Source of the DNA: a plasmid
Length of the DNA: 64,000 nucleotides
Sequence record: NZ_CP022047.2
Strand: one strand, 5' to 3'
Made by a program: the position numbers and the translations under genes. A model generated the notes under the pieces. It did no database searches and was not told the origin of the DNA. It was given only the letters and a program-made list of their open reading frames with translations. Below, one piece after another: positions 4,642-47,893 of the stretch. Position 1 is the stretch's first letter; every line of letters begins with the position of its first letter.

Positions 4642-4814
4642 ACAAAGGACTGTAGCCAGTATACTCGTATAACGGCTATTACCTAGTATGTCTCCAAATT
4701 CGAATGGTTTCTTCTTTTTATCTAAATACGTATGTGTGATTTTGTTTTTTGATGGTTTTATAACGCATCCCTCCTAATAAATATCGGCATACAATATATA
4801 ATATGCATTATGCT

Positions 4815-5780: not shown

Positions 5781-5801
5781 TGTATATATCTCCCTTTATG
5801 A

Positions 5802-8015: not shown

Positions 8016-8150
8016 CGCCTTGACACCCTTTCCTTTTTTATTTAGAATTAAATTCTAGTATCTATATATATGAAATAGCTTTTTTCATCGTTAATTTTAA
8101 GAAAACCCCGGAATAACTTTTTTAAGTTATATCGGGGTTTTCTATTTATA

Positions 8151-8441
8151 TTAAAATTTTCCGTTTGCTTGGAACCAACCTACAATTGTTGTTGCGGACA
8201 ATACAACACATAAGCCGACGGCGCCACCAATCCACCATTGTTTAGCTGTACGTTTTCCATCATCGCCACCGAAAATCCAAAATAAGCCACCAATGATGAA
8301 TGCCAGTCCAGCTCCAGCAACACCGATTTTGTTTAAACCACGGCTAAAGTCTTTAATAACCTTTGCCCCTTTATCGAACGCGTCATTGTATTGTAAGAAA
8401 TCAAAAATGACATCTAAATGTAGTAATGTAATTAAATCCAT
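8151..8441 (-). CDS. small two-transmembrane-helix membrane protein (possible T4SS VirB2/VirB3-like component)
   Basis: 96 aa with two hydrophobic helices rich in Gly/Ala (GVAGAGLAFIIGGLFWIFGG; WWIGGAVGLCVVLSATTIVGW). Assignment rests on position next to the transfer genes. Confidence 0.4.
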   Translation of the reverse strand: MDLITLLHLDVIFDFLQYNDAFDKGAKVIKDFSRGLNKIGVAGAGLAFIIGGLFWIFGGDDGKRTAKQWWIGGAVGLCVVLSATTIVGWFQANGKF

Positions 8442-8467
8442 TCGTTTACCTTCTTCCTGTTAAAATT

Positions 8468-8497
8468 AGTAATTAAAAAAGCCCTTCGAAAAGGGCT
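8468..8497 (-). terminator. rho-independent terminator (minus strand)
   Basis: Hairpin AGCCCTT-cgaa-AAGGGCT, preceded by an A-run on the plus strand, which is a U-run on the minus strand. It lies downstream of the 8621-8902 gene. Confidence 0.5.
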
Positions 8498-8620
8498 GTG
8501 AGATGTTTAAAATTGATATAAGTGCTTTTTGGAGTATTGTACGTCTTCCGTTAGTGTTGGATTGCGTATAGGGTTCATATATAGCCTATCCTCCATGCAT
8601 CAAGTTGCATAGTCTTTGGT

Positions 8621-8902
8621 TTAAGCTTGTTGATGCTTATTTTTTTGTATTTGTTCTGACTGGGCTACATTCTGCCCTGTTTTGTTGTTCGTACCTTTTA
8701 CATTTTGTAGTACTAGTGATAAGACGGCTTCCTTCAAAACATTTTCTCTCCAAGCGTTAAAATATGTTTTATCTTTATCAATGATTTGAAGACGTTTTTC
8801 ATTCACTACTTGTTCAGCCCAAGTTTGATAATCAATACCATGTGACTGTACAATTTCTTTCATATCTTTTTCTTTCAATGTTAGATTTATCATATCCATC
8901 AT
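8621..8902 (-). CDS. hypothetical protein
   Basis: 93-aa ORF overlapping the stop of the LPXTG gene by 4 nt, suggesting translational coupling. Confidence 0.45.
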   Translation of the reverse strand: MMDMINLTLKEKDMKEIVQSHGIDYQTWAEQVVNEKRLQIIDKDKTYFNAWRENVLKEAVLSLVLQNVKGTNNKTGQNVAQSEQIQKNKHQQA

Positions 8903-11754
8903 CCTTCAGAATTTTTCTTGCGTAATTTTAGGAGTGTTAAGCCACCAGCAATTAACACACCACCCATCACAATAAGCCATGTCATCGTCTCAGTACCTGT
9001 CTTTGGTAAAACTGATTGAATCATATTAGGCTTTTCTTGTGGTGTTTCTTTCACTTGTTGTGGAGCTGATTGCGGTTGTTCAGTTGGTGGTGCAACTTTT
9101 TCAGGTTGTTCTTGTGGTGCTTCAGGTTCAGGATTCTCAGGTGTTGGTTCTTGAGGATCTTTTGGTTCTTCAGGTTTTTCAGGTACTGGTGTTACTTCTT
9201 TCTCTTCCTTCGGAACTTTAGTTGTCACTTGATTAGTTTCCTTCTTCTCCTCATTGACAGTTGAAATTGCGACATTATCTATAATAGATTTTCCATCTTC
9301 TTGTTTTAGTTTTGATAAATCAACATCTTTTGGAATTGTCACATCTATATCTGTCTCTAAATGACCACCACGATACTTTGTATCAGGCTTTTCATTTTCC
9401 CATTTAACAGATGATTTTTCTTCGTCAATCGTTGATTTCCCTTCTTTTGTCACATCTTCTCTCTTATCCGTATTAGAACCATCCTCATTCACATTTTCTG
9501 TGTTTGTGGAAGAATCTAAGTCCGTTACATCTTTATTTGATTCATTTTCTTCAGTATTTGTAGAACCTTCATCTTGATCTGTCGTTTCATTATTTACGTT
9601 CTTTTCTGTTTTAACTGTTTCTTCTGTATTTAATGATTCTTCATTTTTACCTACATCTTCATTATTTGATGAAGCATCATTCTTGTTTTCTTCATTTTTT
9701 GATGACTGATTATCATTATCTTCTGTATTGGATGATTCTTCCTGATTTTTTTCAGAAGTTATCTTTTTACCACCTAAATAAACTTTCATCCCATCTATTT
9801 GTAATACGTCGTTCATGTCATCTTCAATTTTGATGGCATCTACCTTCTCAGCATTTGGAATATCAGTTTTAATACGGTAAGTGTAGGATTCGCCTGCTTT
9901 AACTTCATTTTCTTTTACTTCTTTACCTGTATCATCTACAATGACTTTTTCTGTTTTAAAATCAACTTTTTCTAATACTGTCTCTACTTCATTTGAAGGT
10001 GTTTCTTTATCCCCTTCCACAATTTTGATTGTATTAGGTAAAACAAATTGACCGTCTTTCTCATATTCCTTAAGACTAACGTCATCTCTCACCGTCACAT
10101 CAGCGAGTACCTTAATTTTTTTACCTGCTAATTTTTTGGGACCTTTAGCAAACCATGAATAAGTATTGGTTTTTTCATCAATTTTTAAATCGCCATCTTT
10201 TGTGATTTCTTGATCCTTTTCATCCATGACTTTAATGTCATTAATTTTTAAAGGCTTAGTTACTTCATCAATTACACCACGTTTAACATCAGCTTCTTTA
10301 TTGCCAAATTGTGCAATTTTTTCATACTTAAAAGTATCACCAATTTTAACGTCATTCATATCAACTTTATTACCATTTTGATCAATGATTTTTTTAGTAA
10401 CAGAAGGTTTAATTGGTTTTGGCGGTGTTGTCACAACTTCATTCGTATCTTTATCTTTTCCATCTTTATACACTTTAGCTTTATTCAAAATTTGAATTTC
10501 ACCTTTATCATTTGTAATTTTGGATAAGTCAGCATCTTTCTTCAGTTTTACGTCTACTTTAAATTTATAGTCATTCTCATAAAACTCTTTTTTCTTTAAA
10601 ATGCTTGATTTTGCCTGATAATGAAGTTTATTTCCTTCAGATTTATTATCAAAGTACTCAGTTGTCACATCTTTGCCTTCTGAATTCGTAATCGTAACTT
10701 TTTTAACTTCTAATTCACTATTGATATCGTCTTTAAAACCGTAATCTTTATAGTAGAATTGTTCTTCTTCCGCAGGTACAGTATGTGTAATATCATAATG
10801 ATAACCTTCATACAATGTATCTAACTTGTTTTTCTCTACATCTTTTTCATCTTGGTCAGATACTAATTTAAATGGCTCTAACGTTTCAGTTTTCGCTGGT
10901 TTTTCACCATCGTATCCAAAATACTGTGCATATTGTCCTTCATCCCATTTAATGACTTTATCTTTATTATAATCTGTCCAATCTTTACCCCAACGCATAG
11001 ATAAGTCATGACTATCACTTAAAATTGTAAATTTCGCAAAAGCATCCTTTGGATCTGATAACTCTCCATCAAGTTCTTGGAATCTATGAAAACCGTCTTT
11101 ATGTTCATAATCAATCCAAGAATCTTTTGAATGATAGACTTTTGAAATCTTACTCATTTGTTTGTCAGGGAATCCAGCATATTGTTTAGCATCAATATCA
11201 TTGATGCCCATATATGTTCCAGTGATGTCTGTAGCTGGTTTACCTGTATCGTGATAAATTGGTTCCCAGTGGATATCAATCCACTCATACCCAGCTTGTG
11301 TAAAGCCAATACCATTCACTTTACTTCCTGCGAATCGCATATATTGACCACCTTCGAAACCTGCCTCTTTCCAATCAACAACTGTTGCTTTATAGTCAAT
11401 TTGTTTCCCGTGGTATGTTCCAACATTTGTGTAATAAGCCGTCAACTTCCCTTTTTCATCCTTTTTAGGTTCAACCCAAATAGCATTACCAGTTGGTGTT
11501 GTCTTTAAAGAGGCTGTTTTAGATAATTCTAATTTTGATTTTCCAGTGATCCATTTGGCGATAAAACTATACTTATTACTGATTTCAGAATCTTTACTTG
11601 GCACTTCTGCATTTGGTGCTTTTGAAATTGGTTCAGCTTTCACAATACCTCCGGTACTCATTAGAGATGTACCTAAAATAACACCTGCTGTTGCGGTTTG
11701 AAGTTGCCTCATACGCTTTTTATTTCTATTGTCCTTTAATTGTGTTGTCACCAT
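8899..11754 (-). CDS. LPXTG-anchored cell-wall surface protein (putative conjugation/aggregation adhesin)
   Basis: N-terminal signal peptide and a C-terminal LPKTG motif followed by a hydrophobic helix and RKKNSEG tail. A proline/glutamate-rich stalk (PEKPEEPKDPQEPTPENPEPEAPQEQPEK) precedes the anchor. The likely ATG start is at 11754 after a GAAGGGTGG ribosome-binding site; the ORF caller used TTG at 11760. Confidence 0.8.
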   Translation of the reverse strand: MVTTQLKDNRNKKRMRQLQTATAGVILGTSLMSTGGIVKAEPISKAPNAEVPSKDSEISNKYSFIAKWITGKSKLELSKTASLKTTPTGNAIWVEPKKDEKGKLTAYYTNVGTYHGKQIDYKATVVDWKEAGFEGGQYMRFAGSKVNGIGFTQAGYEWIDIHWEPIYHDTGKPATDITGTYMGINDIDAKQYAGFPDKQMSKISKVYHSKDSWIDYEHKDGFHRFQELDGELSDPKDAFAKFTILSDSHDLSMRWGKDWTDYNKDKVIKWDEGQYAQYFGYDGEKPAKTETLEPFKLVSDQDEKDVEKNKLDTLYEGYHYDITHTVPAEEEQFYYKDYGFKDDINSELEVKKVTITNSEGKDVTTEYFDNKSEGNKLHYQAKSSILKKKEFYENDYKFKVDVKLKKDADLSKITNDKGEIQILNKAKVYKDGKDKDTNEVVTTPPKPIKPSVTKKIIDQNGNKVDMNDVKIGDTFKYEKIAQFGNKEADVKRGVIDEVTKPLKINDIKVMDEKDQEITKDGDLKIDEKTNTYSWFAKGPKKLAGKKIKVLADVTVRDDVSLKEYEKDGQFVLPNTIKIVEGDKETPSNEVETVLEKVDFKTEKVIVDDTGKEVKENEVKAGESYTYRIKTDIPNAEKVDAIKIEDDMNDVLQIDGMKVYLGGKKITSEKNQEESSNTEDNDNQSSKNEENKNDASSNNEDVGKNEESLNTEETVKTEKNVNNETTDQDEGSTNTEENESNKDVTDLDSSTNTENVNEDGSNTDKREDVTKEGKSTIDEEKSSVKWENEKPDTKYRGGHLETDIDVTIPKDVDLSKLKQEDGKSIIDNVAISTVNEEKKETNQVTTKVPKEEKEVTPVPEKPEEPKDPQEPTPENPEPEAPQEQPEKVAPPTEQPQSAPQQVKETPQEKPNMIQSVLPKTGTETMTWLIVMGGVLIAGGLTLLKLRKKNSEG

Positions 11755-11988
11755 GTACAACCACCCTTCTTAATTTTTAATTACTTTTAACATACGTCCA
11801 CCAAAATATATGTAGGTGAACGCGCGTTATATTGTTTTTCCATAACCTCATCCCTTCCAATAAAAAAAGCCATTATTACAATTTGTAATAATGGCTTTTT
11901 TAACCTATTCTATTTGATCTATTTGTCTCTAAAAACATTTTCATATCTTTAGTACTTGTTTTGAGATGGCTTCAAATCAATATTCAAG

Positions 11989-27846: not shown

Positions 27847-28179
27847 ATGAAAGTAGAAGAGTTTATAGAATATGAGTTGCACAGAAAAATTTTCCTTACT
27901 CCTATAAAAGATAATTATCAACTAACAAGAGATGAGTTACTTTTACTTGGTATTTTTCAGAAATTTGATTACATTAATGAAGTTTACCTAACCGATTTTA
28001 TTTATTTAGCAAACAAGTATCAACTTCATTACACAAAACCATTAAAATCATTAGCTAGTAAAAATTTTTTTAAGAAAAAGAGACTTATTGAAGATGAACG
28101 CACAGTCATTCTATATGATATAAATTATAGGAAGATAAATGATATATTTAATCATATTAATTCAGAAATTTTCAATTAG
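27847..28179 (+). CDS. SarA-family winged-helix regulator (paralog 1)
   Basis: 110 aa with the KxRxxxDER signature (KKRLIEDER). Similar in length and pattern to the 30627 and 34936 ORFs. Confidence 0.6.
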   Translation: MKVEEFIEYELHRKIFLTPIKDNYQLTRDELLLLGIFQKFDYINEVYLTDFIYLANKYQLHYTKPLKSLASKNFFKKKRLIEDERTVILYDINYRKINDIFNHINSEIFN

Positions 28180-29942: not shown

Positions 29943-30281
29943 ATGAAAAATCCATGGTTTTATGTTTTTCTTACATGTGTACTAGAAGTTGTATGGGTTT
30001 TTGGTTTTAATGTTGCTAACACTTGGTGGCATTGGATTCCCATTGTTTTAGTTATTGTAGTTGATTTTTATTTATTATCTAAGGCTTGTGAAAGTTTACC
30101 AACGGGTACAGTGTATGCTGTGTTTGCAGGTGCTGGAACGGTTGGAACTGTCTTAATGGATACATTTATTTTCAATAGTACGATGACATTTTCTAAGTTA
30201 TTTTTTATTTCTTTAGTAGTATTAGGTGTTATTTTTCTAAAGCTTTTAGATAATTCTAATGAATCGGAGGTAGTAAAGTAA
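29943..30281 (+). CDS. small multidrug resistance (SMR) family transporter subunit (paired SMR, subunit 1)
   Basis: 112 aa with four transmembrane helices. Confidence 0.7.
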   Translation: MKNPWFYVFLTCVLEVVWVFGFNVANTWWHWIPIVLVIVVDFYLLSKACESLPTGTVYAVFAGAGTVGTVLMDTFIFNSTMTFSKLFFISLVVLGVIFLKLLDNSNESEVVK

Positions 30282-30596
30282 ATGGGATGGATATTGGTTA
30301 TACTAGCTGCACTATTTGAAGTAGTAGGAATAATTGGTTTGAAAAAATTTAGTAGTGAAAAAAACTTAAATAATGGAATTCTTCTGTTTGTAGGTTTTAT
30401 TGGCTCTTTAACACTATTGTATTCTGCTTTTAATTATATACAAATGAGTATTGCTTATTCTGTATGGGTAGGTATTGGAACAGCATCAGCTGTAGTTTTA
30501 AATATGGTTTTCTTTAATGAACCTAAAAATATGGGAAGAATTTTAAGCCTTATATTAATAATTATAGGAGTCGTAGGACTAAAAGCTGTTTCTTAA
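30282..30596 (+). CDS. SMR family transporter subunit (paired SMR, subunit 2)
   Basis: 104 aa with four transmembrane helices and a conserved membrane-embedded Glu (ALFEVVG). Start overlaps the stop of subunit 1. Confidence 0.7.
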   Translation: MGWILVILAALFEVVGIIGLKKFSSEKNLNNGILLFVGFIGSLTLLYSAFNYIQMSIAYSVWVGIGTASAVVLNMVFFNEPKNMGRILSLILIIIGVVGLKAVS

Positions 30597-30626: not shown

Positions 30627-30977
30627 GTGGAAGACTTCATAAAGTATGAATTAAATAGAAAACTATATATCAATAAAATAGAAAATAGTTTTGATATCAA
30701 TAGAGAAGAGCTATTGATACTGTCGATTATTAAAGAAATAAATAGTGATAAGATATATTTAAGTGAATTGTTATATCATATAAATAAGTACAATTTATAC
30801 TATACTAAACATTTAAAATCACTTAGAAAAAAGAATTACTTTACCAAAAAAAGATTACCTGAAGATGAAAGATCTGTTATTATACAAGATATTAACTATG
30901 AAAAAATTGAAGATTTATTTGACGATATTTATTCAATAGTATTTGATACAAATGAAAAAAATGACAAAAGGACGTAA
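30627..30977 (+). CDS. SarA-family winged-helix regulator (paralog 2)
   Basis: GTG start after AAAGGGGA. KKRLPEDER signature; about 45% identical by eye to the 27847 ORF. Confidence 0.6.
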   Translation: MEDFIKYELNRKLYINKIENSFDINREELLILSIIKEINSDKIYLSELLYHINKYNLYYTKHLKSLRKKNYFTKKRLPEDERSVIIQDINYEKIEDLFDDIYSIVFDTNEKNDKRT

Positions 30978-34935: not shown

Positions 34936-35259
34936 ATGAATCTTAAACAAATTAAAAATTATCTTGATTATATGGAAAAAATTGAAAAGGAAATATTGAA
35001 AGAGTTTGGCATCGATTTAAATGATTTAAAGATTATATTAATCATTTCAAATAATAACAATACTATTTCTAAAGTTGAAGCATATAAACACAGTAATTTA
35101 AAGGTAAGTGCATTTAATATTCATGTAAAAAAACTTTATAAGTTAGGTTATATTCATAAAGAGCGAGATGTGGTTGATGAAAGAACTTTAATATTATCCA
35201 CAAATCAAAAACTAGTTAACAAAATAGAAGAAAGATTTAATCTAATAAAGCGTCTTTAA
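34936..35259 (+). CDS. SarA-family winged-helix regulator (paralog 3)
   Basis: KERDVVDER signature. The ORF-track start at 34837 overlaps the aquaporin gene; ATG 34936 is more plausible. Confidence 0.55.
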   Translation: MNLKQIKNYLDYMEKIEKEILKEFGIDLNDLKIILIISNNNNTISKVEAYKHSNLKVSAFNIHVKKLYKLGYIHKERDVVDERTLILSTNQKLVNKIEERFNLIKRL

Positions 35260-36758
35260 CTATTATTTAATTTATATAGTATATCTTTCCACTTATTTAA
35301 TATATTTTTATAGGAAAATTGATTGGACTCATGAACGCTATTATCTCTTAACTTTTGTTGTAGTGTACTATCCTCTAAAAAGAACTTAACTTTTTCGTAT
35401 AATTCTTCTTCATTATTTTTGTCAATCAAAAATCCATTAATATTATTTTTGATCATTTCTCTAGGGCCATATGCAATGTCATAACTTATAACAGGTACAC
35501 CATTAGATAAGGACTCTAATATTGCTAATGAGAATCCCTCCATATTACTAGTAATTAGGCTCAAATGAGAGGATTTCATTTCTTCTGTTAAATCTGATAT
35601 AAACCCCCTAAATTTAACATATTCTTTTAAATCCATTGCTTCTACAAGGTCTTTTAGCTTATTTTGTTCACTTCCATAACCAAATAAGTGGAGTTCTATT
35701 TCTTTAAAATCATTTTTTAATTTTGAAATCAAACGTATTTGATGATCTAGTTGTTTTTCAGGTGAATATCGTGCTATTGAAATCATTTTAAATGGTTTGT
35801 CTGGAACAGGAGCTATCTCAATTGCATGCTCTTCCTTATATCCAACTGGAATATTGTATACAGGAATTGAAGATGCAATTCTTTTATTTAAATCTATTTT
35901 TTGTTGTTCAGTAGAAACAATTATTGCAGAAAATCGATCGAGATTTTCAAAAACGGATTTATATATATTTTTAGTATTTGAATACTCAATATTATCATTA
36001 TCTTTAACATGTGTACTATGTAATACAGCAACTACAGGTATCTCCTTATTTATCATTAAAAATGGTGGAGAAGTATCAGCAGTTTTATCACTAAAATATA
36101 TATCACCTTTTTCATACAATTCCTCATAGAAAAATGAAACAAATTCATCATGAGTATTAAAATAGTAAGTCCTATTTTTAAATTCATTTAAAATAATCAT
36201 CGTTAAATCATTTTTATCTGATCCAGTATCATAATATTTTTCTATTTTAACGTCTCCATTAGTATTAAAAAATTCTTCGTGAAGTACTCTTTGGTTTTCA
36301 GTAAGATATTTCGTACAACTAATAAAGCCTCTTATATCATACAAATCTCTCTTGATTTTTCTGCCCTTAAGATCAAAATGGTTAATATAGTTGATAAATT
36401 TGTAATTGTCATCATAAAAGTTAACGTACATAATTTTTCTTCCATTAGAGAATATCCTTATATCATTAGTATCTGCTATATATTTAATTTCAAATCTATC
36501 TTCATAAATCCATTTAGATATCCAATTAGGTATTGTATTTAGTTCAATATGTATTGTTTCTTGAAAGTAATCATAGATGGAAAATATGTCTTTATTAACA
36601 CCAAATACTCCAGCATTGCCTGTTAATCGAGGATTCCAAGTTAAAGTTATGATTTTAGAATGAAGTAGTTCTTGATCAAAAAGTTTAAACCTATTAATTA
36701 CAGCTTTTTCTATTCCAGTTAATTTTTCGCCTATATTATTAATTACAAAATAATACAT
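35256..36758 (-). CDS. GT4 glycosyltransferase, GtfA/SdgB-like (serine-rich/SD-repeat protein glycosyltransferase)
   Basis: 500 aa. N-terminus MYYFVINNIGEKLTGIEKAV parallels the GtfA N-terminus MTIYNINYGIGWASSGVEYA. C-terminal GT4 motifs MEGFSLAILESLSNGVPVIS. Confidence 0.7.
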   Translation of the reverse strand: MYYFVINNIGEKLTGIEKAVINRFKLFDQELLHSKIITLTWNPRLTGNAGVFGVNKDIFSIYDYFQETIHIELNTIPNWISKWIYEDRFEIKYIADTNDIRIFSNGRKIMYVNFYDDNYKFINYINHFDLKGRKIKRDLYDIRGFISCTKYLTENQRVLHEEFFNTNGDVKIEKYYDTGSDKNDLTMIILNEFKNRTYYFNTHDEFVSFFYEELYEKGDIYFSDKTADTSPPFLMINKEIPVVAVLHSTHVKDNDNIEYSNTKNIYKSVFENLDRFSAIIVSTEQQKIDLNKRIASSIPVYNIPVGYKEEHAIEIAPVPDKPFKMISIARYSPEKQLDHQIRLISKLKNDFKEIELHLFGYGSEQNKLKDLVEAMDLKEYVKFRGFISDLTEEMKSSHLSLITSNMEGFSLAILESLSNGVPVISYDIAYGPREMIKNNINGFLIDKNNEEELYEKVKFFLEDSTLQQKLRDNSVHESNQFSYKNILNKWKDILYKLNNS

Positions 36759-37054
36759 GTTATATCCTCCTGATTGTAAAACTTGGAAATCAGTTAATTA
36801 TTGCTGAATGCCTTCTTTCCACTATTTATACCATAAGTTTAAGCTATTTGTGAAATTAGATATCAGAACTACAATGCAGCTATTTTTAATGTAATTAATA
36901 TTTTTTATATTTATTATTTAACTAAATTTAATAATTTAATTAAATAATATGACTGAATATTAGTCAGATTTTCCCGTTTAATTTATATTTATTTCCCACG
37001 ATTACTAGTGTATAATTCTCCTAGATTTATATTAAATAAATAAGAGGTGTTAAA

Positions 37055-40000
37055 GTGGGGAAATTCAAAAAGCAAAGATTTGCGATTAGAAAATTCACTA
37101 TGGGTATAGGTTCCGTTTTACTAGGATTCACTATATTTTCTGTAGCCCATACTAGTGAAGCTAAGGCAAATGAAAGTGAAAAGGATTATATTTTAAAGCA
37201 GTCATCATCTACGGGTGCAGAAGATGAAACTTCTGAGACAAAAGAATTAGAAGTAACGGGAAATAATGATGGTGTAAAATCACAAGAAGCAACTAATGAT
37301 AATAATCAACCTATTGCTGAAGAACAAAATGTTAGTCAAGAAGATAGTCCAACTAATGATTTGAATGACAATATCTCAGAAGAAGTGAATACTGAGGAAT
37401 CTAACTCTGAGATAGAGGTAAATTCAGACAGTGAAACATCTGATTCTGATAAAGAAAAATTAGATTCAGACAGTGAAGCATCTGATTCTGATAAAGAAGA
37501 ATTAGATTCAGACAGTGAAGCATCTGATTCTGATAAAGAAGAATTAGATTCAGATAGTGAAGCATCTGATTCTGATAAAGAAAAATTAGATTCAGATAGT
37601 GAAGCATCTGATTCTGATAAAGAAAAATTAGATTCAGATAGTGAAGCATCTGATTCTGATAAAGAAGAATTAGATTCAGACAGTGAAGCATCTGATTCTG
37701 ATAAAGAAGAATTAGATTCAGACAGTGAAGCATCTGATTCTGATAAAGAAGAATTAGATTCAGATAGTGAAGCATCTGATTCTGATAAAGAAGAATTAAA
37801 TTCAGACAGTGAAGCATCTGATTCTGATAAAGAAATATCAGATTCAGAGTCTGAGGCAATTGATTTAGCAAAACAAAAAGCAAAAGAAAAAGAAAAAAAT
37901 GAATTAAAAGCAAAAGAAAAATCACTTAAAGCTGTAAAAGCAGCTCCAGACCCATATCATGAAGTATCAAAAAAGTATTGGGGTGGTATTCTTGGGTTCT
38001 TCGGTAATAATGGTTTTACTGGAGATATAGCAGCCGAGAAAAATTCATATGTAATTGGTGAAAATGTAAAAGCTAAAGGTGAATTTAAAAAAGCCGGACT
38101 TATTAATACTGATAAAGTTACTTATCAGTGGTATATGTATAAAGATGGCAACTGGGTAATTCTTAGTGGTCAAACGAGTGATACTTTAACATATAAGCCA
38201 ACAACTGAAGGAGAATATTGGTTCCAATTAGTTGCTACAACTAAACCACTTATTGGTAGAGGAACAACATATGGTTCAAATTTAGTGAAAGTAGATGTTG
38301 TATCTGATGCTGTTATAGCAGATGAAGTTACAATTACTAAAAATCCTGGTCATTTAGCAGGAGACACTACTTGGACTTTAGATTATGAAACTAATCCAGA
38401 AGATGCAACAGGGAAAGTAACTTGGTCGATTAATGATAATAGTCTAGCTACGATAGACCAATATGGTAATGTTACAACGAACGCAAATGGAAAAACAGGT
38501 ACTGTAATAGTAACTATAGTTTTGACAAATGATGATGGTACAGTAGTTACTGACTCTATATCTATTGAAGTTGGTAATATTATAACTGATCAAAGTGTAG
38601 AAGTTGGAGACGATGCTGAATTTACGATTGCACCTGGAGTAGTGCCTGAGGATACAGAAGAAACAGTTAGTTATGAATGGTATGATGCAGAAACTGGTGA
38701 ATTAATTTCTACAGACAAAGATTTGGTATTAAATAATGTTACAAAAGATGATGATGGCAGACAATTTTACGTAGTAATTAAAATTGGTAATCAAAAAATG
38801 ACATCTAATACTGCAACATTACATGTTAGTTCTGAAGCCTCTGAATCTATCAGTACATCTTTATCATTAAGTGAATCAGAATCTATTAGTGAATCAGAGT
38901 CATTAAGCATTTCAGAATCATTAAGTACATCTGAGTCAATCAGTGAATCAGAGTCTATCTCAGAATCATTAAGTACATCTGAATCAATCAGTGAATCAGA
39001 ATCTATTTCAGAATCATTAAGTACATCAGAATCTATCAGTGAGTCAGAGTCAATCAGTGAGTCAGAGTCAATCAGTGAGTCAGAGTCTATTTCAGAATCA
39101 TTAAGTACTTCAGAATCTATCAGTGAGTCAGAGTCAATCTCAGAATCATTAAGTACATCAGAATCTATCAGTGAATCTGAATCTATCTCAGAATCATTAA
39201 GTACTTCAGAATCGATCAGTGAATCAGAATCTATTTCAGAATCATTAAGTACATCAGAATCAATTAGTGAATCAGAATCTATCAGTGAGTCAGAATCATT
39301 AAGTACATCTGAGTCAATCAGTGAGTCAGAGTCAATCTCAGAATCATTAAGTACATCTGAGTCAATCAGTGAGTCAGAGTCAATCTCAGAATCATTAAGT
39401 ACATCTGAGTCAATCAGTGAGTCAGAGTCAATCTCAGAATCATTAAGTACATCTGAGTCAATCAGTGAATCAGAGTCTATTTCAGAATCATTAAGTACTT
39501 CAGAGTCAATCTCAGAATCATTAAGTACATCTGAGTCAATCAGTGAGTCAGAGTCTATTTCAGAATCATTAAGTACTTCAGAATCTATCAGTGAGTCAGA
39601 GTCAATCTCAGAATCATTAAGTACATCAGAATCTATCAGTGAATCTGAATCTATCTCAGAATCATTAAGTACTTCAGAATCGATCAGTGAATCAGAATCT
39701 ATTTCAGAATCATTAAGTACATCAGAATCAATTAGTGAATCAGAATCTATCAGTGAGTCAGAATCATTAAGTACATCTGAGTCAATCAGTGAGTCAGAGT
39801 CAATCTCAGAATCATTAAGTACATCTGAGTCAATCAGTGAGTCAGAGTCAATCTCAGAATCATTAAGTACATCTGAGTCAATCAGTGAGTCAGAGTCAAT
39901 CTCAGAATCATTAAGTACATCTGAGTCAATCAGTGAGTCAGAGTCAATCTCAGAATCATTAAGTACATCTGAGTCAATCAGTGAGTCAGAGTCAATCTCA

Positions 40001-43000
40001 GAATCATTAAGTACATCTGAGTCAATCAGTGAGTCAGAGTCTATTTCAGAATCATTAAGTACTTCAGAATCTATCAGTGAGTCAGAGTCAATCTCAGAAT
40101 CATTAAGTACATCAGAATCTATCAGTGAATCTGAATCTATCTCAGAATCATTAAGTACATCAGAATCGATCAGTGAATCAGAATCTATTTCAGAATCATT
40201 AAGTACATCAGAATCAATTAGTGAATCAGAATCTATCAGTGAGTCAGAATCATTAAGTACATCTGAGTCAATCAGTGAGTCAGAGTCAATCTCAGAATCA
40301 TTAAGTACATCTGAGTCAATCAGTGAGTCAGAGTCAATCTCAGAATCATTAAGTACATCTGAGTCAATCAGTGAATCAGAGTCTATTTCAGAATCATTAA
40401 GTACTTCAGAGTCAATCTCAGAATCATTAAGTACATCTGAGTCAATCAGTGAGTCAGAGTCTATTTCAGAATCATTAAGTACTTCAGAATCTATCAGTGA
40501 GTCAGAGTCAATCTCAGAATCATTAAGTACATCAGAATCTATCAGTGAATCTGAATCTATCTCAGAATCATTAAGTACTTCAGAATCGATCAGTGAATCA
40601 GAATCTATTTCAGAATCATTAAGTACATCAGAATCAATTAGTGAATCAGAATCTATCAGTGAGTCAGAATCATTAAGTACATCTGAGTCAATCAGTGAGT
40701 CAGAGTCAATCTCAGAATCATTAAGTACATCTGAGTCAATCAGTGAGTCAGAGTCAATCTCAGAATCATTAAGTACATCTGAGTCAATCAGTGAGTCAGA
40801 GTCAATCTCAGAATCATTAAGTACATCTGAGTCAATCAGTGAATCAGAGTCTATTTCAGAATCATTAAGTACTTCAGAGTCAATCTCAGAATCATTAAGT
40901 ACATCTGAGTCAATCAGTGAGTCAGAGTCTATTTCAGAATCATTAAGTACTTCAGAATCTATCAGTGAGTCAGAGTCAATCTCAGAATCATTAAGTACAT
41001 CAGAATCTATCAGTGAATCTGAATCTATCTCAGAATCATTAAGTACTTCAGAATCGATCAGTGAATCAGAATCTATTTCAGAATCATTAAGTACATCAGA
41101 ATCAATTAGTGAATCAGAATCTATCAGTGAGTCAGAATCATTAAGTACATCTGAGTCAATCAGTGAGTCAGAGTCAATCTCAGAATCATTAAGTACATCT
41201 GAGTCAATCAGTGAGTCAGAGTCAATCTCAGAATCATTAAGTACATCTGAGTCAATCAGTGAGTCAGAGTCAATCTCAGAATCATTAAGTACATCTGAGT
41301 CAATCAGTGAATCAGAGTCTATTTCAGAATCATTAAGTACATCTGAATCATTAAGTACATCTGAATCAATCAGTGAGTCAGAGTCTATTTCAGAATCATT
41401 AAGTACATCTGAATCAATCAGTGAATCAGAATCTATTTCAGAATCATTAAGTACTTCAGAATCTATCAGTGAGTCAGAGTCAATCTCAGAATCATTAAGT
41501 ACTTCAGAATCTATCAGTGAGTCAGAGTCATTAAGTACATCTGAGTCTATCAGTGAGTCAGAATCATTAAGTACATCTGAATCTATCAGTGAATCTGAAT
41601 CTATCTCAGAATCATTAAGTACTTCAGAGTCAATTAGTGAGTCAGAATCATTAAGTACATCAGAATCAATTAGTGAATCAGAATCTATTTCAGAATCATT
41701 AAGTACATCTGAATCAATTAGTGAGTCAGAGTCATTAAGTACATCTGAATCTATCAGTGAGTCAGAGTCATTAAGTACATCTGAGTCAATCAGTGAGTCA
41801 GAGTCATTAAGTACATCTGAGTCAATCAGTGAGTCAGAATCATTAAGTACTTCAGAGTCAATTAGTGAGTCAGAGTCAATCTCAGAATCATTAAGTACAT
41901 CTGAATCAATCAGTGAATCTGAATCTATCTCAGAATCATTAAGTACTTCAGAATCATTAAGTACATCTGAATCAATCAGTGAATCAGAATCTATTTCAGA
42001 ATCATTAAGTACATCAGAGTCAATCAGTGAGTCAGAATCATTAAGTACATCTGAATCTATCAGTGAATCAGAATCTATTTCAGAATCATTAAGTACATCT
42101 GAGTCAATTAGTGAGTCAGAGTCATTAAGTACATCTGAGTCAATTAGTGAGTCAGAGTCATTAAGTACATCTGAATCAATTAGTGAGTCAGAGTCATTAA
42201 GTACATCTGAATCAATTAGTGAGTCAGAGTCATTAAGTACATCTGAATCAATTAGTGAGTCAGAATCATTAAGTACATCTGAATCAATTAGTGAGTCAGA
42301 ATCATTAAGTACATCTGAATCAATTAGTGAGTCAGAGTCATTAAGTACATCTGAATCAATTAGTGAGTCAGAGTCATTAAGTACATCTGAATCTATCAGT
42401 GAATCAGAATCATTAAGTACATCTGAATCAATTAGTGAGTCAGAGTCATTAAGTACATCTGAATCTATCAGTGAATCAGAATCATTAAGTACATCTGAAT
42501 CAATTAGTGAGTCAGAATCATTAAGTACTTCTGAATCTATCAGTGAATCAGAGTCATTAAGTACATCTGAATCTATCAGTGAATCAGAATCATTAAGTAC
42601 ATCTGAATCAATTAGTGAGTCAGAGTCATTAAGTACATCTGAATCAATTAGTGAGTCAGAGTCATTAAGTACATCTGAATCAATTAGTGAGTCAGAGTCA
42701 TTAAGTACATCTGAATCAATTAGTGAGTCAGAGTCATTAAGTACATCAGAATCAATTAGTGAGTCAGAATCATTAAGTACTTCTGAATCAATTAGTGAGT
42801 CAGAGTCATTAAGTACATCTGAATCAATTAGTGAGTCAGAGTCATTAAGTACATCTGAATCAATCAGTGAATCAGAGTCTATTTCAGAATCATTAAGTAC
42901 ATCTGAATCTATCAGTGAATCAGAATCATTAAGTACATCTGAATCTATCAGTGAATCAGAGTCTATTTCAGAATCATTAAGTACATCTGAATCTATCAGT

Positions 43001-44335
43001 GAGTCAGAGTCATTAAGTACATCTGAATCAATTAGTGAGTCAGAGTCATTAAGTACATCTGAATCTATCAGTGAATCAGAATCATTAAGTACATCTGAAT
43101 CTATCAGTGAATCAGAATCATTAAGTACATCTGAATCTATCAGTGAGTCAGAGTCATTAAGTACATCTGAATCAATTAGTGAATCAGAATCATTAAGTAC
43201 ATCTGAATCAATTAGTGAGTCAGAGTCATTAAGTACATCTGAATCAATTAGTGAGTCAGAGTCATTAAGTACATCTGAATCTATCAGTGAATCAGAATCA
43301 TTAAGTACATCTGAATCTATCAGTGAATCAGAATCATTAAGTACATCTGAATCAATTAGTGAGTCAGAGTCATTAAGTACATCAGAGTCAATCAGTGAAT
43401 CAGAATCATTAAGTACATCTGAATCTATCAGTGAATCAGAATCATTAAGTACATCTGAATCTATCAGTGAATCAGAATCATTAAGTACATCTGAATCTAT
43501 CAGTGAATCAGAATCATTAAGTACATCTGAATCTATCAGTGAATCAGAATCATTAAGTACATCTGAATCTATCAGTGAATCAGAATCATTAAGTACATCT
43601 GAATCTATCAGTGAATCAGAATCATTAAGTACATCTGAATCTATCAGTGAATCAGAGTCTATTTCAGAATCATTAAGTACATCTGAATCTATCAGTGAGT
43701 CAGAGTCATTAAGTACATCTGAATCAATTAGTGAGTCAGAGTCATTAAGTACATCTGAATCTATCAGTGAATCAGAATCATTAAGTACTTCTGAATCAAT
43801 CAGTGAGTCAGAGTCATTAAGTACATCAGAGTCAATTAGTGAGTCAGAGTCATTAAGTACTTCAGAATCAATTAGTGAGTCAGAGTCATTAAGTACATCT
43901 GAATCTCTAAACCCTAGCGAATCAGAGTCATTAAGTACATCAGAGTCAATTAGTGAATCAGAATCATTAAGTACATCAGAATCAATGGATCCTAGCGAAT
44001 CAGAGTCATTAAGTACTTCAGAGTCTATCAGTGGCTCAGAATCATTAAGTACATCAGAATCAATGGATCCTAGCGAATCAGAATCACTAAGCACATCAGA
44101 ATCGATGGAGACAGATGGAAATACTACTTCTGAAAATGATTTTAATTTGAATGATAATGAAGTTCTTGAAGATAATGAAGCAAATAATAATGAAGATAAG
44201 CAAGATGAATCATTACCAGATACTGGAGAAGTTAAACAAAATTCTGGTTTAGCTAGTGGAATACTTGCTGGATTAGGAGGTTTACTATTATTAAATAGTA
44301 GACGTAGAAATAAAAATGATGATCAAACATCATAA
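37055..44335 (+). CDS. giant serine-rich-repeat cell-wall surface protein with YSIRK-type signal peptide and LPXTG anchor (2426 aa)
   Basis: GTG start after TAAGAGGTG. Signal [17 protein letters not shown] (YSIRK-G/S type). N-terminal acidic 16-aa repeats [12 protein letters not shown](E/K)LDS x10, then a roughly 300-aa non-repeat domain. That is followed by about 1750 aa of [18 protein letters not shown] (18-aa) and then [14 protein letters not shown] (14-aa) repeats, ending in LPDTGE, a hydrophobic helix and RRRNKND. Confidence 0.85.
37433..37860 (+). repeat. tandem 48-nt repeats encoding acidic SD/SE-rich 16-aa units
   Basis: Near-identical units are visible directly in the sequence. Confidence 0.8.
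38833..44095 (+). repeat. ~5.2-kb array of 54-nt then 42-nt tandem coding repeats (SE-dipeptide serine-rich region)
   Basis: Visible periodicity in the sequence. The unit changes from 18 aa to 14 aa at about 41.3-41.5 kb. Confidence 0.85.
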
Positions 44336-44421
44336 GTAAATGGTCAATATAAAATGAGCTAAGAGTTATTCTCTTAGCTTGTTTTTTGATATATTTCTAA
44401 ATATAAAGTAAATTAAAATTT

Positions 44422-44613
44422 ATGAAAGGATATTTTATGAATCAATATAAAAATACCGAAGAAATTAATAAAGAAATAGAAGAAGAATTACTAAACTATA
44501 AATCAACAGAAGAAAAGAAAAATGAAAAAAAACAGTTCTTATCTTTAAAGTTTTTAGGAACTTTTATGATTGTGTGTTTGATGTTAACTAGCTTAATAAG
44601 AATTTTTATTTAA
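44422..44613 (+). CDS. small protein with C-terminal transmembrane helix
   Basis: 63-aa ORF between the SRR gene and gtfA. Confidence 0.3.
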   Translation: MKGYFMNQYKNTEEINKEIEEELLNYKSTEEKKNEKKQFLSLKFLGTFMIVCLMLTSLIRIFI

Positions 44614-44642
44614 TAATTTGAAAGATAGAGAAGGGGCTTTCT

Positions 44643-46148
44643 ATGACAATCTATAATATAAACTATGGTATTGGTTGGGCTAGTAGTGGAGTTGAATACG
44701 CTCAATTATATCGTGCAAAAATGCTAAGAGAACAAAATGAAAAATTAAAATTCATATTTCTAGATTTTTTCTCTCAGGATAATATACAAACATTAACAAG
44801 TAATTTAGGCTTTTACGATGAAGAGATTATTTGGCTATATCAATACTTTACAGATATTAAAATTGCACCTACCTCATACACATTTGATGCTTTTATGAGT
44901 ACGTTAGATATGGAAGTAACAAAACAAACAAAAGATAAAAACATTGTTAAGTTATTTAATGAAACTAAACAAATATATGTAGTATGTTACCTAAACGAAG
45001 CTAATAACCAATATATTGAAAGAGTAGAATTCGTATCAAGAGGTAAGTTGATTAGGAAAGACTATTATTCTTATACAAAAGTTTTTTCTGAGTATTATGC
45101 ACCATATGAAAATAAAGCTAAGTTATATATGAGACAATTTTATAATGAAGATGGTTCGATTGCTTATAATGAATATTTCAATAACAATGGTGAATTGTAT
45201 ATTTTTAAAGAAAAAATATTGTATTCTAAACAAGAATTTGTTGCTTATTTTATTCAATCTCTAAAACTATCTGAAAAAGATGTTCTAATTGTTGATCGTT
45301 CTAAAGGACTAGCTCAACCTATAATACAAAATAAAGGAGCTGCCAACCTTGGTATTGTGATACATGCTGAACATTATAGTAAAAACTCTACATCAAATGA
45401 AAATATTTTGTGGAATAATCACTATGAGTATGTTTTTGAAAATTCAAATGAAATTGATTTTTATATAACTGCAACCGATAGACAAAAAAATGTCTTAACA
45501 AAGCAATTTGAAAATTATTATAAAGTAAGTCCAAAAATATATACAATTCCTGTAGGTAGCATTAATGAACTAAAAATTCCTAATGATAGAATGGCTCACT
45601 CAATTATTACAGCTTCAAGGTTAGCGACTGAAAAACATATAGATTGGCTTATTAAAGCTGTTTCTATTGCGAAAAAGTCTATTCCTGATTTGAAGTTTGA
45701 TATATATGGAGAAGGTGGACAAAAAAAGCTGTTAGAAAACTTAATTCAGAGTGAGAAAGCAAGCAATTACATTTCATTATTAGGTCATTTGGATTTGAAT
45801 GAAATATATTCAAAATATGAATTGTTTTTATCTGGATCCACAAGTGAAGGTTTTGGTTTGACACTGATGGAAGCAGTGGGTTCAGGGTTAGGAATGATAG
45901 GTTTTGAAGTTGATTATGGTAATAATACTTTCATTGAAAATGAAAGAAATGGTATCTTAATACCTTTAGATTTGAATAAACAATCAGAAGAAAAAATTAT
46001 AAATAATTTGGCAGAATCAATTATAGACTATTTCAGTAATAACCAAGAAAAATATCATAAATATTCATATGAGATAGCTGAAAAATTTAAAACAGAGAAT
46101 GTAAAACAAGAATGGGTTAAATTGTTGAAAGAGGTGCAATATGATTAA
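44643..46148 (+). CDS. gtfA: GtfA-type glycosyltransferase (SRR glycoprotein O-GlcNAc transferase, GT4)
   Basis: N-terminus MTIYNINYGIGWASSGVEYAQLYRA matches, as I recall it, the conserved start of GtfA/Gtf1 proteins. C-terminal EGFGLTLMEA; 501 aa. Confidence 0.7.
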   Translation: MTIYNINYGIGWASSGVEYAQLYRAKMLREQNEKLKFIFLDFFSQDNIQTLTSNLGFYDEEIIWLYQYFTDIKIAPTSYTFDAFMSTLDMEVTKQTKDKNIVKLFNETKQIYVVCYLNEANNQYIERVEFVSRGKLIRKDYYSYTKVFSEYYAPYENKAKLYMRQFYNEDGSIAYNEYFNNNGELYIFKEKILYSKQEFVAYFIQSLKLSEKDVLIVDRSKGLAQPIIQNKGAANLGIVIHAEHYSKNSTSNENILWNNHYEYVFENSNEIDFYITATDRQKNVLTKQFENYYKVSPKIYTIPVGSINELKIPNDRMAHSIITASRLATEKHIDWLIKAVSIAKKSIPDLKFDIYGEGGQKKLLENLIQSEKASNYISLLGHLDLNEIYSKYELFLSGSTSEGFGLTLMEAVGSGLGMIGFEVDYGNNTFIENERNGILIPLDLNKQSEEKIINNLAESIIDYFSNNQEKYHKYSYEIAEKFKTENVKQEWVKLLKEVQYD

Positions 46149-47463
46149 TCTTTTTGAATCATTTGATGCAAAAACAAAAGTACTTTATAAAACTTTTGAA
46201 AATACAGACATAAATAATCAATCTATAGTAATTGAAGAAGATGGCTTTTTACCGTCAGGCATACTAACACCTTATCAATTTTTTGCTGAATATAAAAATG
46301 GATCATCAGGTCCATTATATTTTAATAAAGTACCTATACCAAGATTTTGGGAGATAGAAGGTAATAATAATTCTGCTGAAATTAAAAATATGGGAGAAAC
46401 CAAAGGGAGAATTATATACAAAAAAAATTTTGGTTTTCGTTCAGTAGATAGAATAGAATGGTTGAATAAGCAAGGAAAAACACAAGTCATTGATTACTAT
46501 AATAAAAATGGATTTAAATATGCCCAATTATTACTTAACGATGAACAAAGAAGAGTTATAAAAAGGTGGTTCAATCAAAACAATCAAGAAATAATCACTG
46601 AAAATTTTATTACTAATGATATAATTTTAAATTGGAATGATAAGGAATATATTTTTCATTCAAAAGTTCAATTTATTATATTTTATCTAAAATCAGCTAA
46701 TTTATCATTAGAAAGTTTCTTGATTAATTCTTTATCTTTACCATGTGCTGTCTTATACGACTTAAAAGAAGAAGGTAATGATTATTTGTTTTGGCAAGAA
46801 AAAACCCCTGATAAACTACCTGGTAATATGAATTTATTATTGAGAAAGCGACATAGAAATTGTCATATTATAACTCCTAATACAGTGGAGTATAGTAAAC
46901 TACAAGAATTAGTAAATGAAGAGCAAAGAAAAGAAATTTTGAAATTGGGTTATGTATATAATTTTGTTGGGAAAAATCAACAAACTAATAATGTTTTAAC
47001 ATTAACCAATTCCGACCAAATTCCAAATTTAGAAGAGTTAGCAAAAAATTTACCTGAATATAACTTTCATATTGTAGCTTTGACAGAGATGTCTCCAAAG
47101 TTAACAAAGTTGGGTAGCTATCCTAATGTTCAATTGTTTCCAAATGCTTCAAGAGATAAAATTCGCTCGTTATATAAAGAATGTGATATATATTTAGATA
47201 TCAATAAAGGGAATGAAATTCTTGATGCTGTAAAATCAGCTTTTGATTATCAATTATTAATATTTGGTTATGTTGAAACATTACATAATGAGAATTATGT
47301 ATATAACGATAACCTATATTTATTAGAAGAATATGACAAATTAATTCAAGATTTCAAGTCATTAAATAAACTAACTATGAAAGATAGATTAACAAATCAA
47401 TTAAAATATGCAGGATCAGTTACTAAAAAGAATTTTTTAAATAGTTATAATAAATTACTTTAA
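46141..47463 (+). CDS. gtfB: GtfB-type glycosyltransferase partner/stabilizing protein
   Basis: 440 aa, start overlapping the gtfA stop by 8 nt. Size and context match GtfB/Gtf2. Confidence 0.6.
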   Translation: MINLFESFDAKTKVLYKTFENTDINNQSIVIEEDGFLPSGILTPYQFFAEYKNGSSGPLYFNKVPIPRFWEIEGNNNSAEIKNMGETKGRIIYKKNFGFRSVDRIEWLNKQGKTQVIDYYNKNGFKYAQLLLNDEQRRVIKRWFNQNNQEIITENFITNDIILNWNDKEYIFHSKVQFIIFYLKSANLSLESFLINSLSLPCAVLYDLKEEGNDYLFWQEKTPDKLPGNMNLLLRKRHRNCHIITPNTVEYSKLQELVNEEQRKEILKLGYVYNFVGKNQQTNNVLTLTNSDQIPNLEELAKNLPEYNFHIVALTEMSPKLTKLGSYPNVQLFPNASRDKIRSLYKECDIYLDINKGNEILDAVKSAFDYQLLIFGYVETLHNENYVYNDNLYLLEEYDKLIQDFKSLNKLTMKDRLTNQLKYAGSVTKKNFLNSYNKLL

Positions 47464-47537
47464 TATACTTTTAAATATTTTCTCGGCTACAACTGAAAAA
47501 TAGAAATCAATTCAAAATTATTTTTGTGTTATATTAT

Positions 47538-47580
47538 TAAGAAGAAAGGTTATATTTTAAATTATAACCTTTCTTCTTTT
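47538..47580 (+). terminator. intrinsic terminator after gtfB
   Basis: AGAAGAAAGGTTATA-ttttaaat-TATAACCTTTCTTCT + T5. Confidence 0.5.
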
Positions 47581-47893
47581 TGTATCTTATTTTTCTAAAT
47601 TTGCAATGCACTTTTTTAATAAATATATTTCTTCTTTAAAATCTAAGTTCTTATTATAGTCATGATTATTATTTTTTATTTTCCTAAGAACTTCTTGTGA
47701 AATATAAAGTAAATCATCACTAATATCTTCATAATACCTTAATTTATTTCTATCGATATTACCACTCCTTAGAATATTATATTATGATAATACCATAACT
47801 ACCAACCGGTAGATAGCTTAGAACTGTTACATTTTATTTACATTTGTTATTATGTATATGAGGATGAAATTTATTTAAAAGGAGAGACAATAT

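Follow-up and report, generated by a model that had tools for sequence, protein, structure and literature searches.

Gene content of the locus

We analyzed a 64,000-nucleotide stretch of plasmid NZ_CP022047.2 (referred to below as the window), which carries a gene cassette for a serine-rich adhesin and for the glycosyltransferases predicted to modify it. The open reading frames (ORFs) of the cassette were checked between positions 35256 and 47463. The cassette was found to contain five genes: a divergently oriented gene for a GT4 glycosyltransferase resembling SdgB, the gene for a 2426-residue protein with a YSIRK signal and an LPDTG anchor, a gene for a small membrane protein, gtfA and gtfB (Table 1). 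Four of these had been called in an earlier sequence-only reading, and all four were recovered with the same borders, while the gene for the small membrane protein had been overlooked. All five ORFs are intact, including the 7.3-kb adhesin ORF, in DNA with a G+C content of roughly 28–34%.

The export of classical serine-rich repeat (SRR) adhesins is thought to depend on a dedicated SecA2/SecY2 machine, since these proteins already carry glycans when they are exported. Models of SecA2, SecY2, and the Asp proteins had no match among the long ORFs of the window, and a tblastn search of all 64 kb with SecY2, Asp1, Asp2, Asp3, and SecA2 of Staphylococcus hominis gave a best E-value of 0.12. The claim of the sequence-only reading that the window holds no secA2, secY2, or asp genes was thereby confirmed by both types of search. 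Pseudogene remnants of accessory Sec genes were sought across the window and none were found. The distance from the adhesin stop codon to gtfA is 308 bp.

Table 1. Features of the cassette and its borders in the window.
Feature	Position	Strand	Basis
SarA/Rot-family transcriptional regulator	34936..35259	+	NCBIfam Staph_reg_Sar, 48.7 bits
SdgB-like GT4 O-glycosyltransferase, 500 amino acids	35256..36758	-	NCBIfam glyco_SdgB; 7ec1
AT-rich divergent intergenic region between adhesin and SdgB-like genes	36759..37054	.	sequence reading
Cell-wall-anchored serine-rich adhesin, 2426 amino acids	37055..44335	+	translation, Pfam, repeat arrays, L004/L005 orthologues
Stem-loop and T-run, likely leaky intrinsic terminator	44357..44388	+	sequence reading; terminator scan (palindrome)
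Probable tail-anchored membrane protein, 58 amino acids	44437..44613 (alternative start 44422)	+	ORF, ribosome-binding site, alignment, hidden Markov model
GtfA, catalytic O-GlcNAc transferase of SRR glycoproteins	44643..46148	+	TIGR02918; 5e9t_A
GtfB, substrate-binding/stabilizing partner of GtfA	46141..47463	+	TIGR02919; 5e9u_B
Strong intrinsic terminator (16-bp stem and T-run), end of the gtf transcription unit	47539..47588	+	terminator scan

Domain structure of the adhesin

The adhesin gene starts with GTG, preceded by the ribosome-binding site AAGAGGTG. Pfam identified a YSIRK_signal (PF04650) at residues 5–28 (E-value 2e-7), a Big_2 domain at residues 423–487, and an LPXTG Gram_pos_anchor (PF00746), with the LPDTG sorting signal located at residue 2387 (nt 44213-44227). 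The signal peptide with its YSIRK-G/S motif covers about residues 1–38. Neither a KxYKxGKxW motif nor a long (about 90 residues) signal peptide with a glycine-rich core was found at the N-terminus.

Two serine-rich regions lie on either side of a non-repeat region (residues 268–591; nt 37856-38827). The N-terminal one consists of ten 14-residue units and covers the 145 residues from 123 to 267 (nt 37421-37855); by tandem-repeat analysis the underlying DNA array is a 42-bp unit present in 10.2 copies. The other is a stalk of SES(I/L)S(E/T) repeats that covers the 1759 residues from 592 to 2350 (nt 38828-44104). The two are chemically distinct. SD/DS dipeptides are confined to the N-terminal repeats, where 60 were counted, while the stalk has 877 serines (50%), 873 SE/ES dipeptides, and no SD/DS dipeptide. 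This difference matches the presence of two types of glycosyltransferase in the cassette.

The non-repeat region, the putative binding region, had three homologues among 5.8 billion proteins, the best of them a fragment from Staphylococcus xylosus with 50% identity. A binding region that is nearly unique appears to be new in this locus. In addition to Big_2, Pfam gave two sub-threshold Ig-like matches (Ig_2/Ig_7). An AlphaFold2 model of the region, made from four sequences, had a mean predicted local distance difference test score (pLDDT) of 56, with values below 50 in the Pfam Big_2 segment, and a Foldseek search of the Protein Data Bank with this low-confidence model returned only generic tandem Ig/FnIII proteins at a template modeling (TM) score of about 0.2. 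The binding region is probably composed of three tandem Ig-like beta-sandwich domains. No N2N3 (DEv-IgG) A region was detected in the adhesin by Pfam or NCBIfam, the structural model being too poor to decide, and no SdrG/SdrF-like MSCRAMM A region with B repeats was detected with the same two libraries. The NCBIfam MSCRAMM models matched the repeats and the anchor only, with scores far below their cut-offs.

The glycosyltransferases

GtfA scored 768 bits against TIGR02918 (cut-off 575), contains the Pfam domains GtfA_EBD and Glycos_transf_1, and aligned over its full length and with high identity to the structure of Streptococcus gordonii GtfA (5e9t_A, 564 bits). GtfB scored 568 bits against TIGR02919 (cut-off 338) and matched S. 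gordonii GtfB (5e9u_B) with 307 bits over about residues 1–393. It is 97% identical to a protein of Mammaliicoccus sciuri, and its gene overlaps gtfA by 8 nt.

The divergently encoded enzyme is predicted to have a GT-B fold with an inserted beta-domain. It matched the NCBIfam model glyco_SdgB (NF047881) over its full length with 622 bits, the curated cut-off being 800, and the structure of Staphylococcus aureus SdgB (7ec1), likewise over the full length, with 499 bits. Its identity is 46–48% to named SdgB proteins and 24–25% to the GtfA of the window. The third glycosyltransferase proposed in the sequence-only reading is thus a GT4 enzyme, and with this identity and a score below the cut-off it can be called SdgB-like only. 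When compared with the published SdgB structure, the enzyme was found to keep the residues that contact N-acetylglucosamine (GlcNAc), H246 and E406–S409 (PMC8561734). In the acceptor groove R101, Y124, N126, K134, and R137 are kept, while G and K take the places of R132 and F108, respectively. Of the six basic or polar residues with which SdgB grips its acidic SD peptide, five are conserved.

A homologue with 79% identity was found on an element resembling a staphylococcal cassette chromosome (SCC; ccrA/B, DUF927, SAUGI). Its gene is divergent from an adjoining gene for an adhesin that has the signal peptide of the window adhesin and a binding region 73–78% identical to that of the window. The pair of SdgB-like enzyme and adhesin is therefore conserved across two different mobile elements. 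The SD-rich N-terminal repeats would be the most plausible substrate of the enzyme. The narrower idea that the enzyme is confined to such repeats was not upheld: on the SCC element, the enzyme is found together with TSEAAQEEATDSEET repeats. These are not SD-rich, and the pairing of SdgB-like enzyme and SD repeats is consequently seen at the window locus only.

The small membrane protein

The likely start of the small ORF is the ATG at 44437, located behind a GAAAGGA ribosome-binding site. In the product, an acidic helix at the N-terminus is followed by a KK motif and, at the C-terminus, by a transmembrane helix, with a hydropathy above 1.7 over residues 33–58, so that the product looks like a tail-anchored membrane protein. 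It belongs to no Pfam or NCBIfam family, and of 1.84 billion representative proteins no more than 15 clusters resemble it. Members of the family are 58–63 residues long. In an alignment of 12 sequences with 34–67% identity, positions occupied by N, I, E, L, KK, and F were invariant.

A hidden Markov model of the family found 18 loci. In each of them the gene is located directly upstream of gtfA, and all are without accessory Sec genes. The model gave one weak match on the opposite strand (E-value 5.5e-8) in a Macrococcus locus that also lacks accessory Sec genes (L042), and nothing significant in any canonical accessory Sec locus classified. A further member was found on an M. sciuri chromosome (L070). 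A likeness to Asp4, Asp5, or SecE was also considered and gave chance-level matches only in Pfam and NCBIfam, libraries that may lack models of Asp4 and Asp5.

A lineage of GtfAB loci without accessory Sec genes

A scan with a GtfB alignment, covering a single genome for each species, gave 53 loci, and more loci were added by look-up. For their classification, the accessory Sec proteins of the canonical S. hominis locus served as references, and the 8–10 kb upstream were examined. About 20 loci share the layout of a YSIRK serine-rich adhesin, the small membrane protein, GtfA, and GtfB without accessory Sec genes. They were found in Mammaliicoccus and in staphylococci of the saprophyticus group, where they are located on plasmids, on SCC and SCCmec elements, and in chromosomes.

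Every locus with a GtfB at least 49% identical to that of the window had no accessory Sec gene in the 8–10 kb upstream, and in these loci a gene for a serine-rich LPXTG protein with SES(L/I)S-type repeats is located upstream. All but two have a recognizable small ORF; one of the two (L013) has none, and the other (L058) has only a divergent 97-residue ORF of similar build. The species in question are M. sciuri, Mammaliicoccus fleurettii, other Mammaliicoccus, S. xylosus, Staphylococcus nepalensis, Staphylococcus cohnii, Staphylococcus pragensis, Staphylococcus intermedius, and unnamed Staphylococcus spp. Among the loci of staphylococcal type with a GtfB at most 47% identical, a SecY2-Asp1-Asp2-Asp3-SecA2 block abuts gtfA in nearly all. 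The exceptions are two Macrococcus loci (L039 and L042) and some loci of Streptococcus and Lactobacillus, none of which have these genes in the 8–10 kb stretch. In all 25 canonical loci classified, secA2 directly abuts gtfA.

The adhesin N-terminus could be read in the window and in L004/5, L006, L013, L016, and L020, and Pfam detected the YSIRK signal in all of them. The binding regions vary from locus to locus within the group. The closest orthologous locus (L004/L005) is homologous to the window over positions 37006-47466, which comprise the block from the adhesin through the small gene to gtfA and gtfB.

In a neighbor-joining tree of concatenated GtfA and GtfB, the loci without accessory Sec genes grouped in a single clade, whose sister was the clade of canonical staphylococcal loci. 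Both types of locus, each with its own GtfAB pair, were found in Staphylococcus sp. ACRSN and in S. pragensis. Rather than being an oddity, the locus is one member of a whole clade. What appears to be new is that the loci without accessory Sec genes make up a monophyletic GtfAB lineage with a signature small membrane protein, and this protein would be a dedicated component of the lineage. The member in the window also seems to be new in joining SD-type and SE-type repeats with both types of enzyme on a plasmid. The names beginning with "accessory Sec system" that NCBI gives to these gtfA and gtfB genes are misleading in this clade.

Two members of the group were looked at separately. In M. sciuri NCTC 12103 (L013, 4613-8358) the YSIRK adhesin contains an L-type lectin domain (201 bits) and MucBP repeats, then SESLST repeats and LPDTG, and is followed by GtfA and GtfB with neither a small ORF nor accessory Sec genes. 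This would in effect be a SraP-like binding module on a YSIRK chassis. In M. sciuri CP069389.1 (L070, 56–78 kb) a cassette with an adhesin of at least 2933 residues, the small protein, GtfA, and GtfB is located about 8 kb upstream of mecA-mecR1 and near the chromosome origin, which suggests an SCCmec-like region. Its location parallels that of Pls on SCCmec type I and of SesJ on SCC.

Relation to known systems

The sequence-only reading held that the architecture might not have been characterized, but several precedents exist. SD-repeat proteins with SdgA and SdgB are the experimental precedent for YSIRK proteins that are GlcNAcylated in the cytoplasm and exported by Sec (PMC3794999). Glycosylation of Pls, which is accompanied by GtfC/GtfD and SdgA/B, was shown experimentally in Staphylococcus carnosus, a host without accessory Sec (PMC5230774). 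On arginine catabolic mobile elements (ACME) and SCC elements of Staphylococcus epidermidis, SesJ is in every case found together with gtfA and gtfB; its GtfA is 22–25% identical to SdgA/B and its glycosylation is hypothesized only (PMC7029136, PMC4850167). An LPxTG gene resembling those for SRR proteins, with GtfA and GtfB downstream, was described in 2016 from Staphylococcus lentus MF1862, whose genome is without accessory Sec, and UafA of Staphylococcus saprophyticus is a YSIRK protein with a Ser-Glu-rich, "SESESL-like" R region (PMC4893552). The concept of a YSIRK/LPXTG serine-rich adhesin with its own glycosyltransferases and no accessory Sec is hence not new, and the exact layout is known descriptively. 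Relatives of the layout are common in related species and have been noticed in passing before. S. lentus belongs to the genus group that is now Mammaliicoccus.

The locus shares with the accessory Sec systems of SraP and GspB a GtfA and a GtfB that score above the equivalog cut-offs, the LPXTG anchor, and an adhesin built from short SRR1-like repeats, a binding region, and a long SRR2-like stalk; the SraP-like L-type lectin domain of sister locus L013 is a further likeness. It differs from them in the YSIRK signal, in the lack of secA2, secY2, and asp1-3, in a GtfAB of a separate clade, and in the addition of the small membrane protein and the SdgB-like enzyme. Pls of S. aureus SCCmec type I is likewise an LPXTG protein of a mobile element with acidic serine-rich repeats, an adjoining gene pair for its glycosylation, Sdg-type enzymes besides, and no accessory Sec. 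However, Pls has SD repeats and G5 domains, gtfC and gtfD are convergent to pls, and no small membrane protein has been reported for it. SesJ resembles the window adhesin in its N-terminal repeats, its C-terminal acidic repeats containing serine, its LPXTG motif, its location on a mobile element, and the gtfA-gtfB genes directly downstream, and the distance between its GtfA and SdgA/B equals that between GtfA and the SdgB-like enzyme of the window (24–25%). By description SesJ differs in having an MSCRAMM A-region and B repeats, and no SdgB-like neighbor has been reported. With no more than 88 bp between sesJ and gtfA, a small ORF is probably absent there.

Compared to the SD-repeat MSCRAMMs ClfA/B and SdrC-E (PMC3794999, PMC8561734), the locus is similar in the YSIRK signal, the LPXTG motif, the adjoining SdgB-type GT4 gene, and the proposed route of cytoplasmic GlcNAcylation of an acidic serine repeat followed by general Sec export. 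It is dissimilar in its stalk, which is of SE type without SD dipeptides, in having no detected N2N3 region, and in its enzyme, which is below the SdgB cut-off and has no SdgA partner. The S. lentus gene is from the same genus group and has the same layout (PMC4893552). In UafA the combination of a YSIRK signal and a Ser-Glu-rich stalk is an established architecture, although UafA has an MSCRAMM-type A region. The mentions of S. lentus and UafA are descriptive, and neither glycosylation nor the GtfAB lineage, the SdgB-like gene, or the small protein was analyzed in them.

Proposed pathway and alternatives

The locus has the hybrid anatomy that the sequence-only reading described, with a YSIRK signal and an LPXTG anchor on an SRR1-binding region-SRR2 body, a true GtfA and GtfB, and an extra SdgB-like GT4 enzyme, and the Sec/YSIRK-exported, multiply glycosylated adhesin deduced from it is the best reading of this anatomy. 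We consider it likely that the YSIRK adhesin is glycosylated in the cytosol by the enzymes of the cassette and exported by the general Sec system. For the biochemistry, including the division of labor between the enzymes and the export route, we infer the following steps. The 2426-residue pre-protein would be made in the cytoplasm, where a GtfA-GtfB complex would O-GlcNAcylate serines (and threonines) of the 1759-residue SES(I/L)S(E/T) stalk. The SdgB-like enzyme would add GlcNAc to acidic serine repeats, most likely the SD-rich N-terminal ones and possibly parts of the SE stalk. The YSIRK-G/S signal peptide would direct the protein to the general SecYEG/SecA pathway and not to SecA2/SecY2. 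Sortase A would then link the adhesin to peptidoglycan at LPDTG, and the glycosylated stalk would project the three-domain Ig-like binding region off the wall. As for the small protein, our guess is that it tethers or organizes GtfA and GtfB at the membrane.

From this a wider proposal can be made, which we put forward tentatively and with more doubt than confidence. The clade of small protein, GtfA, and GtfB would represent a distinct pathway independent of accessory Sec. In it the small protein would be a new factor that recruits GtfA-GtfB to the membrane or SecYEG and couples the cytosolic O-GlcNAcylation of YSIRK adhesins to general Sec export, replacing the role of SecA2/SecY2/Asp1-3, with the SdgB-like enzyme and GtfAB splitting SD-type and SE-type repeats between them.

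A number of observations weigh against cytosolic glycosylation by the cassette followed by general Sec export. The glycosylation of the adhesin and its export route are predictions, and the Ig-like assignment of the binding region comes from weak Pfam matches and a model with a pLDDT of 56. In streptococcal GspB, glycosylation is reported to hinder canonical Sec export, so that export by SecYEG of a stalk heavily modified by GtfAB is not self-evident. Accessory Sec genes were searched for in the 64-kb window, and the host chromosome may supply the system in trans. Staphylococcus edaphicus has the small-gtfA-gtfB triad without an adjoining adhesin. With respect to the SdgB-like enzyme, the N-terminal repeats of the SCC homologue are not SD-rich. 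L004/L005, the closest orthologous locus, has no such gene, its upstream region having been replaced by an insertion sequence (IS) element. Standalone paralogues with 60–62% identity are present in Mammaliicoccus chromosomes without an adhesin nearby.

The observations on the SdgB-like enzyme, together with the fold that it shares with the TarM teichoic-acid enzymes, fit a different explanation: the enzyme could glycosylate SD repeats (or teichoic acid) in general and adjoin the cassette without being dedicated to its adhesin, and the adhesin could be modified by GtfA and GtfB only. We find this explanation unlikely. The divergent pair is found on two mobile elements, with enzymes 79% and binding regions 73–78% identical, the N-terminal repeats of the window adhesin are rich in SD/DS dipeptides, and the SdgB groove residues for the acidic peptide are largely kept. 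Moreover, Sdg-type and Gtf-type enzymes both modify Pls (PMC5230774).

An ordinary accessory-Sec SRR glycoprotein, with the genes for SecA2, SecY2, and Asp located elsewhere in the genome and acting in trans, would agree with GtfA and GtfB passing the "accessory Sec system" equivalog models. Canonical loci are owned by Mammaliicoccus stepanovicii and many staphylococci, and the sequence examined was the 64-kb window. This possibility nevertheless appears very improbable to us, since the signal peptide is a short YSIRK type and not a long KxYKxGKxW type, the secA2 gene that abuts gtfA in every canonical locus classified is not in the window, and the loci without accessory Sec genes form a separate monophyletic GtfAB lineage. 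Species with both types of locus keep a separate GtfAB pair for accessory Sec, and both GtfB loci of M. sciuri NCTC 12103 are without accessory Sec genes. Accessory Sec genes are also missing altogether from the S. lentus genome, which shares the layout (PMC4893552).

We give next to no credence to the idea that the cassette is a decaying, non-functional remnant of an accessory Sec locus. Decay is seen in some relatives, with adhesin or gtf genes fragmented in L020 and L022 and an adhesin ORF that is interrupted, with N-masked bases, in L013. In the window the five ORFs are intact, the 7.3-kb one included, in DNA of low G+C content. The SdgB-like enzyme keeps its donor-contacting residues, and GtfA is full-length with high identity to the solved S. 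gordonii enzyme. The small ORF is kept as a protein at 34–67% identity, the clade covers many species, and the window has no pseudogene fragments of accessory Sec genes.

Preferring glycosylation by the cassette and export by general Sec, we see the locus as a natural test case for what forces dependence on accessory Sec, and for how cytoplasmic glycosylation is coordinated with general Sec export: this lineage keeps GtfA and GtfB, drops the SecA2/SecY2 machine, relies on an ordinary YSIRK signal, and has a tiny membrane protein in addition. Mammaliicoccus is considered a reservoir from which staphylococci can acquire mobile elements. The presence of the cassette on plasmids and SCC/SCCmec elements, with mecA about 8 kb from one member, makes it a candidate transferable factor for colonization or biofilm formation.

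Transcription signals and regulators

Just 3' of the adhesin stop codon a 9-bp stem-loop (AGCTAAGAG/CTCTTAGCT) is followed by TGTTTTTTG. It is likely a leaky intrinsic terminator that separates the adhesin gene from the gtf genes. In the divergent intergenic region, promoter-like matches for the adhesin and SdgB-like genes were found at 36848-36875 and 36961-36989; these are matches to the consensus only, and the promoter calls carry no weight, since the scan gave fewer sites in the sequence than in shuffled sequence (68 versus 102).

The Sar gene adjoining the cassette encodes 107 residues (PF22381) and is also a gene call in an identical contig (L003). It is convergent with the SdgB-like gene and overlaps the 3' end of the latter. 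A Sar-family gene is present in the equivalent position beside the SdgB-like gene in L065 and L066, and the product of the window gene may regulate the cassette. The L065 gene, beside the SdgB-like gene of the SCC element, is 78% identical to positions 27765-28173 of the window and not to the Sar gene adjoining the cassette. Together with the latter, two more SarA/Rot-family regulators (27847-28179 and 30627-30977) are located within 8 kb, and TetR regulators and a gene pair for small multidrug resistance (SMR; Multi_Drug_Res) efflux (29943-30596) are interspersed among them.

Replicon and neighboring genes

Short contigs with exact matches were found in the assemblies of runs SRR5400975 and ERR13910812. 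A megablast search of PLSDB plasmids with the locus gave no match, and the flanks of the window alone matched M. sciuri plasmids with 94–96% identity. Genes of plasmid type in the neighborhood encode a VirD4-like coupling protein, a protein with a PriCT primase domain, and two ParA/PrgP proteins. The cassette appears to be borne by a mobile element of an M. sciuri-like host, probably a large mosaic conjugative plasmid, or possibly an integrative and conjugative element.

The conjugation-type region covers 2122-11760 (-). It contains the gene for the VirD4-like coupling protein of the CD1115 family (2122-4641), two large ORFs for which no family was found (4815-8015), and the gene for a 953-residue LPXTG protein (8899-11760), in which an isopeptide domain and an AgI/II C2-like domain were identified. 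This protein resembles aggregation and adhesion proteins of Gram-positive conjugative elements.

Downstream of the cassette, 49085-50422 (-) encodes a 445-residue protein with an N-terminal TIR/SEFIR domain, 96% identical to M. lentus and M. sciuri plasmid regions, which may be an anti-phage defense gene. A Y-family (DinB/UmuC-like) polymerase is encoded by two ORFs on the same strand, 50477-50866 (129 residues, IMS_C) and 50891-51745 (284 residues, N-terminal part). The same split is present in contig L002; the gene may be a pseudogene with a frameshift, or the split may be real.

An IS3-family fragment at 58767-59536 shares 88% identity with the element that in L004/L005 is located immediately upstream of the adhesin gene, which suggests IS-mediated shuffling of the cassette between replicons. 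An icaA-icaD-icaB-icaC operon for the biofilm polysaccharide (polysaccharide intercellular adhesin/poly-N-acetylglucosamine, PIA/PNAG) is located on the same replicon as the cassette at 59821-63220 (+). The M. sciuri plasmids NZ_CP048735.1 and NZ_CP065961.1 and the S. aureus plasmid NZ_OM362497.1 match it with about 94% identity. In S. edaphicus, ica genes are located a few kb from the small-gtfA-gtfB triad.

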